DNA from: Escherichia coli O127:H6 str. E2348/69
GTDB taxonomy: Bacteria > Pseudomonadota > Gammaproteobacteria > Enterobacterales > Enterobacteriaceae
DNA: 64,000 bases
Strand: one strand, 5' to 3'
NCBI RefSeq assembly: GCF_000026545.1
Contig: NC_011601.1
Below the pieces are notes generated by a model. The model saw only the letters and a list, made by a program, of their open reading frames with translations, ran no database searches and was not told the DNA's origin. Both the position numbers and the translations under genes were made by a program. Shown one piece after another: positions 2,706 to 63,980 of this stretch. How positions within the stretch are numbered: the stretch's first letter is position 1; every line of letters begins with the position of its first letter.

Positions 2706-3806
2706 TCAGGCAAATATCGTCATCAAATAGGCGGCAAACAGTGCCAGATGCGCTGCGCCATTGAGCACGTTAGTTCGTCCGGTGGAGAAGGAGATATGGC
2801 ACAGTACTAAAGAGGCCACCATCACCACCATTTCTGGCGCACCAAGTGCAAACTGCAATTCGTTACCCGTCATAAAGGCAATTAGCGTGACGACAGGTAC
2901 GGTAAGCGAAATGGTTGCCAACACTGAACCAAAGAACAGATTCATCGCGCGCTGGACCTGGTTATTCAACACTGCTTTTAACGCACCTAAACCTTCCGGC
3001 GACAGAATCAACAGAGCCACCAGGAAGCCAGTAAAGGCGACAGGCGCATTCATGCTGTCGAGCAATGTCTCCAGCGGGCTGGCGTTCATTTTGGTGACTG
3101 CAATAACGGCAATCAGATGGACAATCAACCAGATGGCATGCCACAGGCTGCTATGGGCAGACGGTTTACCGTGGTGCGGGTCGTCATCATCACTGTCATC
3201 TTCGTGCTCGTAGACAAACAAACTTTGATGTGTTTTGGTCTGGATCAGCAAAAATACGCCATACATTGCCGCAGAAATTAATGCTACCAGTAACGCCTGA
3301 CCTGTTGAAAAATTCGCTGCAGGCAGAGCCATTGGAAATACCAGTACGATTATCGCCAGGGGGAACAGCGCAATTAAATACTGCTTGATACCAAACAGAT
3401 TCATATATTGGGTGGCAAACTTACGTCCGCCCAACAATAATGAAAAGCCAACCAGCCCACCTGTAACAATCATAATGATTGAATAGAGCGTATCACGCAT
3501 TAGCGTTGGCGCGGCGTCGCCGGTTGCCATTAAAGCTGAAATCAAACTGACTTCAAGAATAACCACTGAAAGGCTAAGAATAAGCGAACCGTAAGGTTCT
3601 CCCAGGCGATGGGCTAATACGTCCGCATGACGGACAACACTAAAGGCGCTACTTAAAATACCAATAAGCGCAAGAAGATTGATGGCAATGACCACTGGTA
3701 GTGTCTGGCTGCTTCCCCACAGGAACAGCACTACCAGCGCCAGAACCGGGAAAATAAGCGAAGTCTCCTTGTGGCGGGTTTTTACCGCCTCTTGAGCATT
3801 TGACAT
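2706..3806 (-). CDS. chaA: Ca2+/H+ (Na+/H+) antiporter
   Basis: 366 aa polytopic membrane protein with acidic loop, conserved context with chaBC. Confidence 0.95.
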   Translation of the reverse strand: MSNAQEAVKTRHKETSLIFPVLALVVLFLWGSSQTLPVVIAINLLALIGILSSAFSVVRHADVLAHRLGEPYGSLILSLSVVILEVSLISALMATGDAAPTLMRDTLYSIIMIVTGGLVGFSLLLGGRKFATQYMNLFGIKQYLIALFPLAIIVLVFPMALPAANFSTGQALLVALISAAMYGVFLLIQTKTHQSLFVYEHEDDSDDDDPHHGKPSAHSSLWHAIWLIVHLIAVIAVTKMNASPLETLLDSMNAPVAFTGFLVALLILSPEGLGALKAVLNNQVQRAMNLFFGSVLATISLTVPVVTLIAFMTGNELQFALGAPEMVVMVASLVLCHISFSTGRTNVLNGAAHLALFAAYLMTIFA

Positions 3807-4306: not shown

Positions 4307-4463
4307 AACCGGTAGCTTAGTTAAAGCTATTCGTGCGGTGTTGCCTTGCAAGTGGTCCGTGGATTGCATCTTGTCCCGTTAGTGGTTTCAAAATGAGCAG
4401 TAAAAATGTCCGGAAGACACCAAAAAGTTGTCGCAGGGAAGTATGCAGTGGCGGAGGTGTAAG

Positions 4464-5159
4464 GTGATAACGCGTGATTTCTTGATGAATGCCGATTGTA
4501 AAACGGCATTTGGTGCCATTGAAGAATCACTCTTATGGTCAGCAGAACAACGGGCGGCTTCGCTGGCGGCGACGCTGGCTTGCCGACCTGATGAGGGACC
4601 GGTGTGGATCTTCGGTTATGGATCGTTGATGTGGAATCCGGCACTGGAGTTTACCGAGTCGTGCACCGGTACACTGGTTGGATGGCATCGCGCGTTTTGC
4701 CTGCGTCTGACCGCCGGGCGCGGGACTGCGCACCAGCCGGGACGAATGCTTGCACTGAAAGAGGGCGGACGCACCACAGGCGTCGCCTATCGACTGCCAG
4801 AAGAGACGCTGGAGCAGGAACTAACCCTGCTGTGGAAGCGTGAGATGATTACCGGCTGTTATCTGCCAACCTGGTGTCAGCTTGATCTTGATGATGGACG
4901 CACAGTAAACGCCATTGTGTTTATTATGGACCCGCGACATCCAGAATATGAATCTGACACTCGCGCTCAGGTCATAGCGCCGTTGATTGCGGCGGCGAGC
5001 GGTCCGCTGGGAACCAACGCACAATACCTGTTTTCACTGGAACAGGAGCTTATCAAACTGGGAATGCAGGACGATGGGCTGAATGATTTGCTGGTATCGG
5101 TAAAAAAACTGCTGGCGGAGAATTATCCGGATGGTGTGTTACGGCCGGGATTCGCCTGA
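4464..5159 (+). CDS. chaC: Glutathione-specific gamma-glutamylcyclotransferase ChaC
   Basis: ChaC family (GYGSLMWNP motif); start placed at in-frame GTG 4464 (ORF opens at 4428), start uncertain. Confidence 0.85.
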   Translation: MITRDFLMNADCKTAFGAIEESLLWSAEQRAASLAATLACRPDEGPVWIFGYGSLMWNPALEFTESCTGTLVGWHRAFCLRLTAGRGTAHQPGRMLALKEGGRTTGVAYRLPEETLEQELTLLWKREMITGCYLPTWCQLDLDDGRTVNAIVFIMDPRHPEYESDTRAQVIAPLIAAASGPLGTNAQYLFSLEQELIKLGMQDDGLNDLLVSVKKLLAENYPDGVLRPGFA

Positions 5160-52895: not shown

Positions 52896-55367
52896 TTAAA
52901 AATCAGCCTGATTCGGGATCAGTTTTTGCCAGATAACTGAAACGTATTTTGCCTGGTAACGGGCGTCATCAAGTGCATTATGGCGCTCACCTTCGAATGG
53001 AATAGCCGTTCTGGCATCGAAGTCTATGGCTTTCCCCAGCTCAACGATTGTGCGTACATCGCGATCGTTGTAGTAACGCCACGGGCAGGGGATCCCCTGC
53101 CGTTCGTATGAACGGCGCAAAATCGTGTTGTCGAAGTTGGCTCCATTTCCCCAGACCTGAACAAAAAATTCACCGGAGTTTTCGTCGATAAATTCCCGCA
53201 ATTGTAACAGTGCATCATCTAACGGGATTTCATCGGTCATAATGGCAGATTGCGCTTCGCGTGATTGCTTAAGCCACCATTTAATGGTGTCCCGATCAAT
53301 GACCCCGCCAGCAGTTTCCAGATCGATAGTCTTACTAAATTCCGGTCCCATATCTCCGGTTTGCGGATCGAAAAATATTGCACCTATTGAGATGATCGGG
53401 GCATCAGGATTTTTTCCCATGGTTTCAAGGTCGATCATTAGATGGTCACACGTCCTGCTGGTGGATGTGATTTCTTGATGACCGTTCACCTTAATTGAGT
53501 GATCTGCCGTCTCGCCAGTTTCATTATCGCTATCGTGATGCTGATTGCCGTCAGTGTTCTCCTTGTGTGGATGTTCAGCGCCTTCCATTTCCTCCGGATC
53601 ATCTTCCTGAACTTCAACCTGATACTCTTCATCGAATGTTTCCTGGTATGTTGCGTCGCCCATCACCGCGCCACAATCAGGGCAGTTGCCGCCGCCGGTC
53701 TGACCGCAGGCGGTGCAGACTTTTTCCACTTCCTGTTGCGCCACTGGTTCAGGCTGTTTCGTTTCTGGCTCGTTTTGTAACGCATTTGGGCTGTTTTGTT
53801 CCGCTTTCTGGCCGTTCTGTTCCGTTTCTTGCTGGTTCTGATTCACTGAATCGCGGGTTTCAATCCCCTTCACCCATTTCGGATCATTCTGGTCGCTAAT
53901 CCCTGCAACAAATTCTCCGCGAGAGGCAGCAAGCAACTTATCGGCGTCAGGCTGGCTGATATTGGCTGCCTGCATAATTTTGTTTACTTCGTCAGCGGTA
54001 ACTTTTACCGGCTCTGGTTGTGCGGTCGTGTCAGATGCACCAGTATTTTGTTGTGAACCTGAGTATGTACTGTTTTTGCGGGCGAAATATTCTTCTTTCG
54101 TGATTTCAGTAGCCCCGGCAGCCAGCGCCTTATCCAGACCAGAAAGTTTGTTTGCGCGACCGTATTTTTCGCCATCCTTGTCGGTGAAGAGGAAGTAGAA
54201 CGGCCCTTCACGCTCTACAGATGGTTCGACTTCCACTTTGCATTCGGTTTTTTCGTTGTCCGGAATTGCCGTTTCCACTGCATCAGTTTCTGGTACTGGC
54301 GACGAGAGAGTATCAGTTGCGCTCTGATTTCTTCCTTCATCTTCAAACACGCCCTTTGTAGTCAGGTATTCAGTAATGTATTTGTTCAGTGCCACAGGGT
54401 CTTTGTGAATGTCGATCGGACGTTCACGGACAAGGCCAAAAATAGTCTGGCGGTCGTAGCGAAGGGCATCAGGCTGTTTGCGCATTGATGCCGAGATACG
54501 CTTCCAGTCTTCGCGGTCGTTGTCGATAACTTCATTTTTTGCCCAGCGATGGATGCTGCCGTCAATGTTTCCGGCATCCACATCACCAGGCCAGAGAGCG
54601 TAGGCCAGTTCGTCATCCAGTGTTTTCCATGTCTGCTTGTATTCGCGATGAATGGCAGCAATGACCGGGCTGATTTTTCCTGTTGAATTTTCAGTGTTCT
54701 GTTGATTGGTTCTGGCGCGGGCGAGATCAACAACAGACGTGTATTTTCCGGTTTCCTTGCGTTCACCTTCGCGACGTTTTTTCCAGATGCGCATCTCTGC
54801 CTGAATTTCGGGCCATTTGGCACCAGGCTTACATTTATGCTTAACCCACCCGATGGCATGCAGCTTAAGCTCCGGATACATGGCGTTAACTTCTGGCATT
54901 TTCATCAACGCTTCAACGATATGTCCGTCGAATGTTGCCATGTCTTCCTGCAACAATTCCTGTGCGCTAATAACCATATCAACGGTGATGTTTTCACATG
55001 TGTCGAACTTAACCATGACAGCGTTCGGTACTTCAGGGGCCAGCTTGTCAAAAGTGACGTTCATCGGATCTGATTCAGTCTCAACCGGGACAAAGGAAGC
55101 AGACTCCTCATCCCAGCGGTTTTCCTGCATATATTCAGCATCCCAGGAATCGAGGGCAGGGCGGGGTATGCCGGGTTTATCCTCACAGACAATAAATTTA
55201 TAAGCGCAGTCCTGAGCTGCAGGGAATTGCTCCAGAAATTGCCAATGAAATTTTGCGCGTGCGCGACGCTCATCACCAGCTTCAATGGCAGTGGCCACCG
55301 CAACAGCGCTATCTTCTTTTATGGCCTGTTCATCAGGAATAGCAGCGCAAATAAAGACTTTACTCAT
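52896..55367 (-). CDS. Prophage exonuclease with C-terminal DnaQ-like DEDDh 3'-5' exonuclease domain
   Basis: 823 aa; C-terminal motifs MIDLETMG (Exo I), NGANFDNTIL (Exo II), HNALDDARYQA (Exo III); CTACGQTGGGNCPDCG zinc-ribbon-like; acidic low-complexity linker. Confidence 0.8.
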   Translation of the reverse strand: MSKVFICAAIPDEQAIKEDSAVAVATAIEAGDERRARAKFHWQFLEQFPAAQDCAYKFIVCEDKPGIPRPALDSWDAEYMQENRWDEESASFVPVETESDPMNVTFDKLAPEVPNAVMVKFDTCENITVDMVISAQELLQEDMATFDGHIVEALMKMPEVNAMYPELKLHAIGWVKHKCKPGAKWPEIQAEMRIWKKRREGERKETGKYTSVVDLARARTNQQNTENSTGKISPVIAAIHREYKQTWKTLDDELAYALWPGDVDAGNIDGSIHRWAKNEVIDNDREDWKRISASMRKQPDALRYDRQTIFGLVRERPIDIHKDPVALNKYITEYLTTKGVFEDEGRNQSATDTLSSPVPETDAVETAIPDNEKTECKVEVEPSVEREGPFYFLFTDKDGEKYGRANKLSGLDKALAAGATEITKEEYFARKNSTYSGSQQNTGASDTTAQPEPVKVTADEVNKIMQAANISQPDADKLLAASRGEFVAGISDQNDPKWVKGIETRDSVNQNQQETEQNGQKAEQNSPNALQNEPETKQPEPVAQQEVEKVCTACGQTGGGNCPDCGAVMGDATYQETFDEEYQVEVQEDDPEEMEGAEHPHKENTDGNQHHDSDNETGETADHSIKVNGHQEITSTSRTCDHLMIDLETMGKNPDAPIISIGAIFFDPQTGDMGPEFSKTIDLETAGGVIDRDTIKWWLKQSREAQSAIMTDEIPLDDALLQLREFIDENSGEFFVQVWGNGANFDNTILRRSYERQGIPCPWRYYNDRDVRTIVELGKAIDFDARTAIPFEGERHNALDDARYQAKYVSVIWQKLIPNQADF

Positions 55368-55459: not shown

Positions 55460-55651
55460 TTAAAGACCTGCCGGGATTTCGTTATTATCCTGGTGAATAA
55501 CTTTATCGACCGGGTAACAGTTACCGGGAATTTTCTGTTCGGTTGCTGCAGTCACACACTCCTGCATTGTCCTGTGAACACTGACTGCAATATCAACTGG
55601 CTCTCCGGAAACAAGAAAAACTGTCAGAACAAGTGCAAATGCTGTATTCAT
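55460..55651 (-). CDS. ydfD: YdfD-like small membrane (lysis) protein
   Basis: 63 aa from MNTAFALVLTVFLVSGEPVDIAVSVHRTMQEC; recalled as Qin-prophage ydfD; alternative start 55660. Confidence 0.6.
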   Translation of the reverse strand: MNTAFALVLTVFLVSGEPVDIAVSVHRTMQECVTAATEQKIPGNCYPVDKVIHQDNNEIPAGL

Positions 55652-55836
55652 TGCCAGCATCCTTTTTGTATCGGACGTAAACGGGCCAGCATTGAAAGAA
55701 TGCATATTTTATTTAATAGCTCCCGTTCGTGTTTTCTCTTGTTAATGGCATCTTCAGTAAATACAGGGTTACTGATAGTGACACCAATTTCAAAACAACC
55801 TTCAGACGTATTAACGTTTGGTAATAACGTTTCCAT
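55648..55836 (-). CDS. dicB: Cell division inhibitor DicB (MinC activator)
   Basis: 62 aa METLLPNVNTSEGCFEIGVTISNPVFTEDAINKRKHERELLNKICILSMLARL, near-identical to DicB as recalled. Confidence 0.9.
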   Translation of the reverse strand: METLLPNVNTSEGCFEIGVTISNPVFTEDAINKRKHERELLNKICILSMLARLRPIQKGCWQ

Positions 55837-56010: not shown

Positions 56011-56063
56011 CGGCGGCAGAGCAGTCACGGAGTAAAACTGATACCGCCAAACGTCACCAGAAA
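56011..56063 (-). ncRNA. dicF: DicF small RNA (ftsZ translation inhibitor)
   Basis: Minus strand reads TTTCTGGTGACGTTTGGCGGTATCAGTTTTACTCCGTGACTGCTCTGCCGCCG then a T-run, matching recalled DicF. Confidence 0.85.
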
Positions 56064-56394
56064 ATTGATAACAGAGGGCGTTGCAGCGGGGTTGTCGCTT
56101 AAGCGTATGGTCAACCTGACAACCCGGTGTCCTCAACGGGGAAGGAATAACCCCGCCATACTTACCGCCGCGCCATTTCGCGGAGTGCCACAACCGGAAG
56201 CGCACGGTCGAACTAAATTTAACGACACCGTACAGAGAGACCAATTTTGCCGTGCGCTTTCGCGTTATGCCCTGACTTTTCAGGGACATATCCTTTCAGT
56301 AAACTGTCAGTGCCGGATGTTCACCCGTGTCCGGCGCACGCACTCCACCTGACCCGTGGAGAACTCCTTAATTACCAACCCTCAGGAGGGTGAA

Positions 56395-56673
56395 ATGGAT
56401 AAAAAGCAAATTGAGGCCCTGCAATCTATTATTGAAAAACAAGATGAAGCTATCAGGATTCTTTCATATCGCACTGATATGATACTAAATATGCTTTCTG
56501 CATTAACGGCTGCGCTTGGTGGTACAAAAACAAACGTATACCGCGAAGTTGTTATTCAACAGATAGATAAATTTGAAAAAACCATACCAGGTATTAATGC
56601 TCATCTTGCAGAACAAGAGAAAGACCATGCTCTTATGGCAATTTCTTCAGTAGCTCTCCCGAAAGTTGAGTAG
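56395..56673 (+). CDS. Hypothetical coiled-coil-like protein, opposite strand within leftward early region
   Basis: ATG 56395 preceded by AGGAGG; 92 aa; 3' end overlaps convergent gene 56633-57046 by about 41 nt. Confidence 0.5.
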   Translation: MDKKQIEALQSIIEKQDEAIRILSYRTDMILNMLSALTAALGGTKTNVYREVVIQQIDKFEKTIPGINAHLAEQEKDHALMAISSVALPKVE

Positions 56674-57046
56674 TTTTAATTGTTGTTTTGAAATAATCAC
56701 TGCTTTCACATTTGAGTGATTTCATGGCAATCCAAATGCGGGCCTCTGTGCCTGCATTTGGTTCCAGTTGCTGTAGACGTTTTGCGTCTTCCAAAAGTAA
56801 GGCGATAATGTGTTTCAGCTTCTCATCATTTGCTTGATTCTTGTTTTCAGGCGAATTCTGTCCGCCGAATAGGCGCTTCTCTTCATACAGACCTATAAAG
56901 GCACGACGCACGTTACCGGATATAGTATCGATGGTTTCTTTTTCTACGGTACTCAGGTCAAGAGTCGCCAGTTGAGAGCGAACCACATTCGATGCCATTT
57001 CCTGGAATGGTACTGGTAAATCTTTAAATTCCATCGTCAACCTCAT
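56633..57046 (-). CDS. Hypothetical prophage early-left protein (137 aa)
   Basis: ATG overlaps stop of upstream gene (TGATG); no motif recognised. Confidence 0.55.
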   Translation of the reverse strand: MRLTMEFKDLPVPFQEMASNVVRSQLATLDLSTVEKETIDTISGNVRRAFIGLYEEKRLFGGQNSPENKNQANDEKLKHIIALLLEDAKRLQQLEPNAGTEARIWIAMKSLKCESSDYFKTTIKTTQLSGELLKKLP

Positions 57047-57279
57047 CAGTCAGTGTTTCTGGTTAACCAGCGACGCGCGCCAGCTTCAGTTTTAAACGTT
57101 TTGCTTCTGGTATACGTCATCGCGGTAAACGTGCCGTCCTGGTTGGGGAACACGCCACATACCAGAGATTCGTTGTTGCCAAGATTGAGCATATCCATGT
57201 TGACCTCATTTCCCCTTAACGCCGGGGTAGCGGAACAAAAACCTGCTGCATAGTTATTAAAGTTGAACCCTGCCGTCAT
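57046..57279 (-). CDS. Hypothetical prophage protein, first gene of leftward early transcript (77 aa)
   Basis: Position equals N/first pL gene; C-terminal basic patch RSKTFKTEAGARRWLTRN. Confidence 0.5.
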   Translation of the reverse strand: MTAGFNFNNYAAGFCSATPALRGNEVNMDMLNLGNNESLVCGVFPNQDGTFTAMTYTRSKTFKTEAGARRWLTRNTD

Positions 57280-57381
57280 GTTCTTACGCCTCGGGCTGGC
57301 TACTTAACCCCTGACCACTGCCTGGTAACTCGAAGTATTGCCCTGCATTCTGTGGGGCGGGGTGGGTTGGTATGAAAAGAA

Positions 57382-57424
57382 GGATACCCATAGGTATTTA
57401 AAAAGTAAATACCTATGGGTAAAT
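57382..57424. promoter_or_regulatory. Pair of TACC-N4-GGTA dyads (candidate OL-type operator and/or repressor-gene terminator)
   Basis: TACCCATAGGTA (57385-96) and its reverse complement TACCTATGGGTA (57410-21), separated by AAAAAGT. Confidence 0.5.
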
Positions 57425-57463
57425 TTTTGCGGTGTCTTAACTGGTGACTAGTTGTTTGGTGAG

Positions 57464-57883
57464 CTATGATGCGTTTTGTGCTTTCTTTTTACGGATTTCT
57501 TCGTAGATCATATTGTAATACTGTTTTTTCTCTTCAAGAGTTTTTAATAATTTATCCGCTTCACTTTCTGGCAGTTCGTCTAAGAGATCTAAAAAAATAC
57601 GTTGTCGTGGCGTTAGAACCCTTGTTTCATAACTGGAGGCTGTGTTCGTTGATGATGAAACGATACCATCCATCCATCCCCGGGGTAACCCAAAGGACTC
57701 TTCGATAATCTCCACCATATCATCAGCGATCCGTTTTTTTCCCTTTTTCCCCTCTGGGTACAACATTCTTGATACATAAGAAGGCTCGCGCCCGATCTTT
57801 CTGGCCACGTTAACCGCTTTACCATCGCATTTCTCATCACGAATTTTGATGAGTTGCTGTCGTCTAAATTCATATTTGTCCAT
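57464..57883 (-). CDS. Putative prophage repressor (short HTH protein in cI position)
   Basis: 139 aa, HTH-like segment AVNVARKIGREPSYVSRM, divergent from Cro-like gene. Confidence 0.55.
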   Translation of the reverse strand: MDKYEFRRQQLIKIRDEKCDGKAVNVARKIGREPSYVSRMLYPEGKKGKKRIADDMVEIIEESFGLPRGWMDGIVSSSTNTASSYETRVLTPRQRIFLDLLDELPESEADKLLKTLEEKKQYYNMIYEEIRKKKAQNAS

Positions 57884-63478: not shown

Positions 63479-63824
63479 TAACACTTCCTTAATTTTCCCT
63501 TAACAATTTAGGGTGCTAAACTTTTTTGCGCAGTTTACATAAAAAAATAGTGCGTACGCAAAAACTATCTAACATGATGAGCTTTAACCGGGAAATTTGT
63601 ATATGTTGTGAGCATAAAGTTGGCTGAGAAATCTAAAACGGGTAGAATGACTGCGGGTGCTTGAGGCTATCTGTCTCAGGCATGAACACCAAAAGGCAGA
63701 TAGAGAAAAGCCCCAGTTAACATTACGCGTCCGGCAAGACGCTTAACATTAATCTGAGGCCATATCTATGCTCTACACACGTAGGTTAGCCTCTTACGTG
63801 CCGAAAGGCAAGGAGAAGCAGGCT

Positions 63825-63980
63825 ATGAAGCAGCAAAAGGCGATGTTAATCGCCCTGATCGTCATCTGTTTAACCGTCATAATGACGGCACTGGTAACGA
63901 GGAAAGACCTCTGCGAGGTACGAATCCGAACCGGCCAGACGGAGGTCGCTGTCTTCACAGCTTACGAACCTGAGGAGTAA
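63825..63980 (+). CDS. hokD: Hok/Gef-family type I toxin (HokD/RelF-like)
   Basis: 51 aa MKQQKAMLIALIVICLTVIMTALVTRKDLCEVRIRTGQTEVAVFTAYEPEE; in-frame upstream extension from 63768 (mok-like). Confidence 0.9.
   Translation: MKQQKAMLIALIVICLTVIMTALVTRKDLCEVRIRTGQTEVAVFTAYEPEE

Follow-up and report, generated by a model that had tools for sequence, protein, structure and literature searches.

The window analysed here is a stretch of 64,000 nucleotides from Escherichia coli O127:H6 str. E2348/69 (contig NC_011601.1), and the subject of this report is a group of three small open reading frames (ORFs) that lie within a prophage between positions 56,395 and 57,279 of the window. Two of them are on the minus strand and encode 77 amino acids (aa; 57046-57279) and 137 aa (56633-57046), and the third is on the plus strand and encodes 92 aa (56395-56673). 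All three are present where a preliminary description of the sequence had placed them. That description regarded them as a single uncharacterised module, a view that does not hold: the two minus-strand genes open an early operon, and the plus-strand gene is a separate accessory cassette. It had also allowed that homology might identify the genes as ordinary early genes, which is the case for the two minus-strand genes and not for the 92-aa gene, whose cassette is independent. Judged by sequence comparison, the two minus-strand genes are ordinary early-operon genes, and the 92-aa gene is a new prophage accessory gene in a recurrent hypervariable slot. The conserved leader of this slot is previously undescribed.

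The bases from 56200 to 57500 are 100% identical to E. coli E2348/69 (enteropathogenic E. coli, EPEC, O127:H6), in which RefSeq annotates a lambdoid prophage integrated adjoining ompW. The RefSeq order of genes on the minus strand is repressor, DUF1391 gene, 133-aa hypothetical gene, dicB, DUF1482 gene, 3'-5' exonuclease, xis and int. The plus strand carries, on the right-hand side of the repressor, genes for replication, a Cro-like regulator and a YdaT-family protein. The small RNA (sRNA) DicF is encoded on the minus strand at 56011-56062, where Rfam family RF00039 matches over its full length (72.5 bits, E 1e-14). The minus-strand gene order and the full-length DicF together identify the locus, at the level of sequence, as the immunity and early-left region of a Rac/Qin-type prophage. 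Further along the minus strand are dicB (55648-55836; WP_000449192.1), which encodes a cell-division inhibitor near-identical to K-12 DicB, and, directly after it, a DUF1482 or ydfD-like gene (55460-55651; WP_001090200.1). DicF and dicB lie downstream of the 133-aa gene on the same strand and were overlooked in the first reading of this sequence. RefSeq, Rfam and alignment to K-12 give the arrangement of a dicBF-type operon, with ydfA (the DUF1391 gene) first and DicF and dicB downstream on the same strand. By this homology, the minus-strand ydfA and 133-aa genes are the promoter-proximal start of a repressor-controlled dicBF-type early-left operon, and the early-left transcript that includes the 133-aa gene is probably also the one from which DicF is processed.

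The prophage repressor (57464-57883, minus strand; WP_000362153.1) is a helix-turn-helix (HTH) protein of 139 aa with a weakly DicA-like C-terminus. It belongs to PHROG 5736, annotated as 'transcriptional regulator' (E 6e-70), and its match to the NCBIfam DicA model (E 1.9e-5) falls below the cut-off. The motif TACC-N4-GGTA occurs four times in the 64 kb against an expectation of 0.39. The copies are at 57385, 57410, 57904 and 57943, so that all four bracket the repressor gene and none is found elsewhere in the window. This confinement to the repressor flanks bears out the earlier suggestion of a left-type operator. The first two copies make up the left operator (OL; 57385-57421, both strands; motif scan), a perfect 16-bp inverted repeat, and the other two the right operator (OR). 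OL overlaps a leftward promoter-like site that was read by eye (-35 TTTACC, 17 nt, -10 TAAATA), and its repeat is terminator-like on both strands. A repressor gene with predicted operators over a leftward promoter (PL) agrees with the dicBF type of operon.

The first early-left gene is ydfA. Dozens of DUF1391 homologues share one conserved start, MD(T/M)(I/L)xLGNNE, and many of them have no in-frame ATG upstream of it. The Rac homologue ydaF begins 10 nt after ydaG. Because only this internal start is conserved, and because ydaF starts so close behind ydaG, the ydfA product is 50 aa long (57046-57198, minus strand), as it is in RefSeq and in alignments with K-12 YdfA and YdaF. The gene formerly given as 77 aa exists, both as an ORF and as a DUF1391 gene, and its length had been over-extended; the 77-aa form, reaching to 57279, was rejected as unsupported.

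The second early-left gene is also shorter than its ORF. The ATG at 57034 has GAGG 6 nt upstream, nearly all homologues begin with MEFKDLP at this point, and RefSeq uses the same start. Most likely the 137-aa ORF starts at 57034, 12 nt further in, and encodes a protein of 133 aa (56633-57034, minus strand). The preliminary description proposed that the 77-aa and 137-aa ORFs are translationally coupled through a TGATG overlap. The TGATG is present at 57044-57048, but the start within it has no Shine-Dalgarno sequence (SD), and 57034 is favoured. With the 57034 start, the ydfA and 133-aa genes are still just 11 nt apart. Between the E. coli and Salmonella copies, the ratio of nonsynonymous to synonymous substitution rates (dN/dS) of the 133-aa gene is 0.18-0.23. 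The gene is a real coding sequence under purifying selection.

From its sequence matches, the 133-aa protein is a mosaic early protein, composed of an N-module, a YmfJ-like core and a tail. Its PHROG matches are modular, with the N-terminal and C-terminal parts matched separately. The N-module comprises residues 1-60 (MEFKDLP...IGLYEEK; 56855-57034, minus strand). In a survey of 5426 complete E. coli genomes it was found in about 800, joined to varying C-termini of 50-150 residues, and it also occurs by itself, as a protein of 52 aa. BLASTP between the two C-terminal types of N-module proteins gave no alignment, and their homology was rejected. The core comprises residues 69-108 (56711-56830, minus strand) and is 75% identical to residues 2-41 of YmfJ, a protein of prophage e14. 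Similarity to the YmfJ family (PHROGs 12693, 30817 and 32391) does not extend over the whole protein, as the PHROG matches cover residues 73-121 only. The variable tail, consisting of the last 25-30 residues (56633-56710, minus strand), is encoded opposite the plus-strand gene, antisense to its 3' end and 3' flank. In Salmonella, core and tail form a separate protein of 71 aa. A P2-like prophage that has a homologue of the 92-aa gene encodes the tail as well, within a 140-aa protein that is otherwise unrelated. An AlphaFold2 model of the 133-aa protein is all-helical, with a predicted local distance difference test score (pLDDT) of 69. No part of the protein matches Pfam, NCBIfam, PADLOC or a solved structure, the last by sequence profile and by fold. 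Identity with YdfB or YdfC was considered and rejected, as the sequences are unrelated, and no homologue of N was found that would make any gene of the region an N-type antiterminator. In the SOS response, induction of ymfJ is late and strong (log2 fold change 4.8, with the protein detected), compared with 2.0 for ymfI (PMC11002266). By this published pattern, ymfJ behaves as a repressor-controlled early gene. A side observation concerns the Salmonella loci L005 (6011-7413) and L006 (4968-6370), where genes for a DUF6932 protein (157 aa) and a 310-aa protein lie between the repressor gene and the 71-aa YmfJ-like gene. The two genes are a candidate insertion of the defence type within this early-left region.

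The plus-strand gene (56395-56673) encodes a protein of PHROG 18692, a family of unknown function. It has a strong ribosome site, as stated in the preliminary description, with the SD AGGAGGGTGAAATG. Between the E. coli and Salmonella copies its dN/dS is 0.15-0.25, and the annotated frame has the lowest value of all six (0.15 vs 0.31-2.75 in the other five). Nucleotide differences fall on codon positions 1, 2 and 3 as 11/5/22. The 92-aa gene is a real coding sequence under purifying selection. A chance ORF, antisense to the early operon and not a gene at all, would accord with the ORFan-like nature of the sequence, which has few homologues and no domain. This explanation is already contradicted by the selection analysis, in which the dN/dS of 0.15 is the best of the six frames and substitutions concentrate at third positions. 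Homologues of about 90 aa with a conserved motif, present in Salmonella and other prophages, and the conservation of SD and start codon also oppose it, and we consider it extremely improbable.

The 92-aa protein is soluble and mildly acidic (pI 5.7) with three predicted helices, and its AlphaFold2 model is helical (pLDDT 71). Remote homology searches and structure prediction, which the preliminary description had recommended, were carried out, and neither the 92-aa nor the 133-aa protein matched a characterised protein, toxin, antitoxin or defence system. For these two proteins, Pfam gave nothing below E 0.1, and NCBIfam gave sub-threshold matches only, among them a RelB-like one of 15.9 bits against a cut-off of 50. 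PADLOC 2.0 gave none that is significant (best HerA, E 0.022, 11 bits), PHROGs gave only families of unknown function, and the best E value against sequence profiles of the PDB was 0.13. Foldseek comparison of both models with the PDB returned generic helical matches only (E ~1 or worse). The earlier remark that no gene here resembles N, Kil, SieB or Rex stands, and none of the proteins matched a PADLOC, Pfam or NCBIfam family. Literature searches brought up no work on the function of YmfI, YmfJ, YdfA, YdaF or the leader.

The 92-aa family is tiny. Exhaustive profile search of 1.84 billion representative proteins gave 21 matches; two long repeat proteins from this search were taken as spurious members and rejected. 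In 50,697 deposited phage genomes, tblastn with the 92-aa protein gave no match. Family members have about 90 aa and share the motif R-[ST]-D-I-x-L-x-L-L-S-A-L...EK-x-H...S-V-x-L-P. Their genomic neighbours are diverse. At loci L136 and L008, the family member converges on a gene for an S24-type CI or HTH repressor and has no partner gene. In the P2-like prophage (L137), it converges on the cox early operon and the gene for the 140-aa protein, with a 44-nt overlap. At L134 it adjoins an integrase gene and has no minus-strand partner. At L136, a perfect 16-nt direct repeat (TGTTCTTGCCGTTGTG) at 219-234 and 688-703 flanks the leader and ORF of the family member, and may be a trace of cassette insertion. 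Two side features of L008, a Salmonella locus, lie at 3032-3594 and 4361-4720. They are a ParE/PhD toxin-antitoxin pair in the early-left region, and a further cassette on the plus strand (119 aa), whose leader is of the e14/Rac type and which lies upstream of, and in tandem with, the 105-aa homologue of the 92-aa gene.

The 92-aa gene is preceded by a conserved 5' leader of about 85 nt (56312-56394, plus strand), which was delineated by conservation, pairing and covariation. Alignment of leaders places hairpin 1 at 56312-56335 and hairpin 2 at 56343-56361. They are followed by an anti-SD, CTCCTT (56364-56369), that pairs with the conserved SD, AGGAGG (56384-56389). K-12 Qin carries this stretch, as do Salmonella and the P2-like prophage, and unrelated ORFs come after it; L004, L008, L010 and L137 are among the loci that have it. 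When 16 nt of hairpin 1 were scanned against IMG/VR, 121 instances were obtained. A plus-strand ORF of at least 40 aa follows 59 of the 121 leaders, and these ORFs have 16 different N-termini and lengths of 57-100 aa, the YmfI family included. Among them is also a protein of 91 aa remotely homologous to the 92-aa one (28% identity, E 9e-6). In 39 of the 121 the arrangement is that of K-12, with ydfC ending there on the opposite strand. In 10 others, a 124-aa N-module gene ends within hairpin 2 and there is no plus-strand ORF, and the remaining 13 are of other kinds. The sequences of the loci with different ORFs part ways at or just before the ATG. Besides the YmfI family, which itself has no known function, no leader cargo matched a functionally annotated PHROG or NCBIfam family.

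Several lines of evidence suggest that the leader is a structured RNA that sequesters the SD. Pairing in hairpin 2 is kept by the combinations CTCCAC/GTGGAG, CCCAAC/GTTGGG, CTCCAT/ATGGAG and ACCACACG/CGTGTTGGT, and its U.G intermediates pair on the plus strand only. In the helix between anti-SD and SD, CTCC(U/A)U:(A/U)GGAG, one pair alternates between U-A and A-U. Among ten length-matched leaders, 94.7% of cells are paired, compared with 33-49% in slid controls. Three pairs show compensatory changes, and the covariation score is 0.119 against 0.056 in shuffles, 0 of 500 of which reached it; these ten leaders were picked by hand and the structure was derived from the same set, so that the result is supportive and not conclusive. 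Pairs were counted on this length-matched subset because RNAalifold, applied to mixed leader types, misplaced hairpin 2, whose stem types differ in length. The predicted minimum-energy fold hides both the SD and the AUG. The leader has no match in Rfam.

A candidate sigma-70 promoter, read by eye, lies just upstream of the leader (56277-56305, plus strand), with -35 TTTTCA at 56277-56282, a 17-nt spacer and -10 TAAACT at 56300-56305. Transcription from it would begin at about 56311, where hairpin 1 has its foot. Most loci have an A/T-rich -10-like hexamer about 5-10 bases before hairpin 1, and several of these loci have unrelated upstream DNA. Another conserved hairpin is located at 56270-56285 (CCCTGA-CTTT-TCAGGG), with the variants CTCTGA/TCAGAG and ACCCTG/CAGGGT. 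Read on the minus strand, it is CCCUGAAAAGUCAGGG and resembles lambda boxB. In the spacer between DicF and the leader, 56189-56207 can pair with 56250-56269 in a stem of some 19 bp that encloses a loop of 42 nt, and the equivalent stem of L136 has 20 bp and a different sequence. The spacer stem may, on one strand or the other, be an RNase III site of the dicF precursor.

Comparison with known prophages places the 92-aa gene in a recurring layout. The order at the window locus is repressor - ydfA[DUF1391] - 133 aa -><- 92 aa - DicF - dicB. That of K-12 Rac is racR - ydaG - ydaF[DUF1391] -><- sieB - KilS sRNA - kilR, with the same order and orientation. In Rac, the plus-strand gene overlaps the 3' end of the DUF1391 gene, and a spacer, an sRNA and a cell-division inhibitor follow. 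The preliminary description had argued from a sieB-type position, and rightly so, as the 92-aa gene occupies the exact slot and orientation of Rac sieB. The proteins themselves differ: SieB (162 aa) has no sequence similarity to the 92-aa protein by PHROG, NCBIfam or Pfam, and it is hydrophobic, with a maximal 19-residue hydropathy of 2.19 as opposed to 0.93. Rac also has a different leader type, and its ydaG replaces the 133-aa gene.

In e14, ymfI (plus strand) and ymfJ (minus strand) converge with a 63-nt 3' overlap, directly left of the repressor gene ymfK (cohE). The likeness to the window locus includes the YmfJ-like core of the 133-aa protein and the YmfI family, which is an alternative cargo behind the same leader as the 92-aa gene. 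However, YmfI is unrelated to the 92-aa protein, and YmfJ has another C-terminus and no MEFKDLP N-module. The Qin dicBF operon (ydfA-ydfB-ydfC-dicF-dicB-ydfD) resembles the window locus in its DicA-type repressor-operator control, and its ydfA, leader-bearing spacer, DicF, dicB and ydfD-like gene are homologous and in the same order. In contrast to Qin, the window has the 133-aa gene and the plus-strand 92-aa gene in place of ydfB and ydfC. The two sequences diverge just ahead of the SD of the plus-strand gene, and the Qin copy of the leader has no plus-strand ORF.

The 92-aa gene shares several properties with morons and accessory hotspots (HK97-type; P2/P4, PMC9122126), being opposite to the lytic genes and variably present at a fixed position. 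It is carried by 126 of 5426 E. coli genomes, and 16 types of ORF are found behind the same leader. Typical prophage accessory loci are genes antisense to lytic genes with their own promoter (PMC7067206). A moron's own terminator was not found here, as a scan for terminator-like sites was empty from 56673 up to the OL hairpin at 57385. Unlike in morons and hotspots, exchange at the window cassette has its boundary inside the 5' untranslated region, at the start codon, and leaves a shared structured leader in place. The leader cargo, moreover, consists of single very small proteins, and the 92-aa protein has no PADLOC match.

The 92-aa and 133-aa genes overlap at their 3' ends by exactly 41 nt (56633-56673, both strands; ORF coordinates), which makes precise the earlier figure of about 41 nt, and the same 41-nt overlap occurs in Salmonella (L004). 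The preliminary description suggested that such a convergent pair could be toxin-antitoxin-like. In a specific form of this idea, the variable C-terminal part of the 133-aa protein would be toxic or an effector, and the convergent 92-aa protein would be its constitutive neutraliser. Where a plus-strand cargo gene is present, the MEFKDLP protein that it overlaps by 11-77 nt has, for most cargo types, only one type of C-terminus. A conserved N-module, a variable C-terminus and a variable small neighbour recall polymorphic toxin loci, and YmfI-like cargo accompanies a tail like the YmfJ C-terminus in both e14 and L015. However, physical linkage of overlapping DNA gives co-inheritance and one-to-one matching regardless of function, and a closer look at the partners reveals shuffling. 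At L010, the same 133-aa gene (88% aa identity) has an unrelated plus-strand gene of 57 aa as its neighbour, and a terminator-like hairpin separates the two. The 92-aa gene is missing from about 42 of 168 E. coli genomes that have this C-terminal part. The commonest N-module protein, of 124 aa, has no plus-strand neighbour, and the YmfJ-like core occurs with at least four cargo families. The 92-aa family itself has three kinds of partner or none, the unrelated 140-aa protein of L137 being one example, and L008, L134 and L136 likewise depart from the strict co-occurrence of a type II toxin-antitoxin pair. Nor are the genes co-transcribed as in type II pairs; they are convergent, do not form an operon and share only 41 nt of 3' end. 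The searches described above gave no toxin or antitoxin family match (Pfam best E 0.1; RelB-like 15.9 bits; PADLOC none significant). Because the partner combinations are shuffled, a cognate toxin-antitoxin pair is unlikely, and we give the toxin-neutraliser version only a slight chance.

We consider it probable, with moderate confidence, that the locus comprises two tail-to-tail units, a dicBF-type early-left operon and an independent, lysogen-expressed moron cassette, which form an excludon. The structural hallmarks of an excludon are present, namely convergent units, overlapping 3' ends and no intervening terminator, so that the sequence resembles that of published excludons (PMC12288877). 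In K-12, ymfI-ymfJ and sieB-ydaF are listed as convergent excludons on the basis of RNA-seq coverage and ExcludonFinder (PMC12288877). Displacement of RacR increases ydaF, ydaG and kilR 40-70-fold, and sieB is not on the list (PMC11014345).

A mechanism can be proposed for this two-unit arrangement. PL, under the two OL operators, would drive ydfA, the 133-aa gene, the spacer, DicF, dicB, the ydfD-like gene, the exonuclease, xis and int. These early-left genes would be silent in the lysogen and would be turned on when the repressor is removed. In the lysogen, with PL off, the cassette would be transcribed from its own promoter, and the leader would gate translation of a small, soluble, helical protein. 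As there is no terminator after the 92-aa ORF, the plus-strand transcript would continue through the 133-aa and ydfA genes in antisense as far as the OL hairpin, and thereby create the excludon. The antisense transcript may damp leaky or incoming early-left expression, including that of the toxic DicF and DicB. The 92-aa protein would most likely bind a phage or host protein, resulting in lysogen protection or host modulation. Exclusion or lysogen protection is the leading guess for its function, a guess made from position and not from sequence.

Several points weigh against the arrangement and mechanism proposed here, in addition to the hand-picked nature of the covariation set. The case for expression in the lysogen is made by analogy with other loci. 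The candidate cassette promoter scores 8/12, which is under the scan threshold, and no plus-strand promoter was above it. The hairpin at 56270-56285, which shows covariation and a U.G variant, overlaps the proposed -35, so the RNA may start further upstream than this promoter. The 92-aa protein has no transmembrane segment, unlike SieB, and no evidence from homology or fold ties it to any exclusion or defence protein. Finally, the leader is kept in K-12 ydfC-type loci that have no plus-strand ORF, and it may have a role of its own.

The last point bears on the alternative that the cassette acts mainly as RNA, as an antisense lock on ydfA through DicF and dicB, with the ORF as a secondary passenger. 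Retention of the leader in 39 of the 121 instances, K-12-type loci without a plus-strand ORF, is what this alternative would predict. The lack of a terminator between the ORF and OL and the scoring of K-12 analogues as excludons (PMC12288877) also fit it, as does the finding that RNase III alters the stability of the ydfA part of the K-12 dicBF transcript (PMC10448788). Yet the ORF is under clear protein-level purifying selection and belongs to a family of about 90 aa conserved across genera, and the conserved SD and anti-SD helix make sense only if translation matters. A mainly RNA-based role is possible, though it is rather unlikely.

Another alternative concerns the timing of expression. 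The slot could be a counter-defence or host-takeover locus, whose small proteins, made early after infection or induction, would inhibit host defences or functions. It would then be similar to loci of the anti-CRISPR type, in which diverse small ORFs come after a conserved regulatory region. Many unrelated, very small (57-100 aa), soluble and unannotated proteins behind one regulatory region are compatible with this role, and the early neighbours DicB, DicF and KilR are host-directed inhibitors. The orientation of the cassette argues otherwise, as it opposes the early operon and early transcription would collide with it. Furthermore, the same slot in Rac holds sieB, a prophage-expressed exclusion gene, and the family is absent from the 50,697 deposited phage genomes. 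We regard a counter-defence locus as improbable.

The two-unit arrangement can be extended, tentatively and with a chance well short of even, to the slot as a whole. The leader would be a dedicated, translationally gated slot facing the early operon in Rac/Qin/e14-like and P2-like prophages. It would serve many small, lysogen-expressed exclusion or host-modulating proteins, of which the 92-aa family is one, and it would place an antisense lock on DicF and DicB.

Other features of the prophage are of separate interest. An Rfam match to the sok antitoxin RNA (117 bits; 63655-63830, plus strand) marks a type I toxin-antitoxin locus of the hok/sok kind within this prophage. At the position of recE in Rac is an 823-aa protein annotated as a 3'-5' exonuclease (52896-55367, minus strand), which has a long acidic, low-complexity N-terminal part without annotation.

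In summary, Rac, Qin, e14 and their relatives share a layout by the repressor in which a small accessory gene with a conserved leader faces a DicF/DicB-type early operon. SieB is so far the only occupant of the slot with a known role, and at least a dozen other small families, including the 92-aa family and YmfI, are uncharacterised. The leader is outside Rfam and may represent a new element of translational control. How lysogens silence toxic early genes could be explained by the antisense arrangement. If its genes are expressed in lysogens, the slot would offer new prophage-encoded functions in a compact form that is easy to search.

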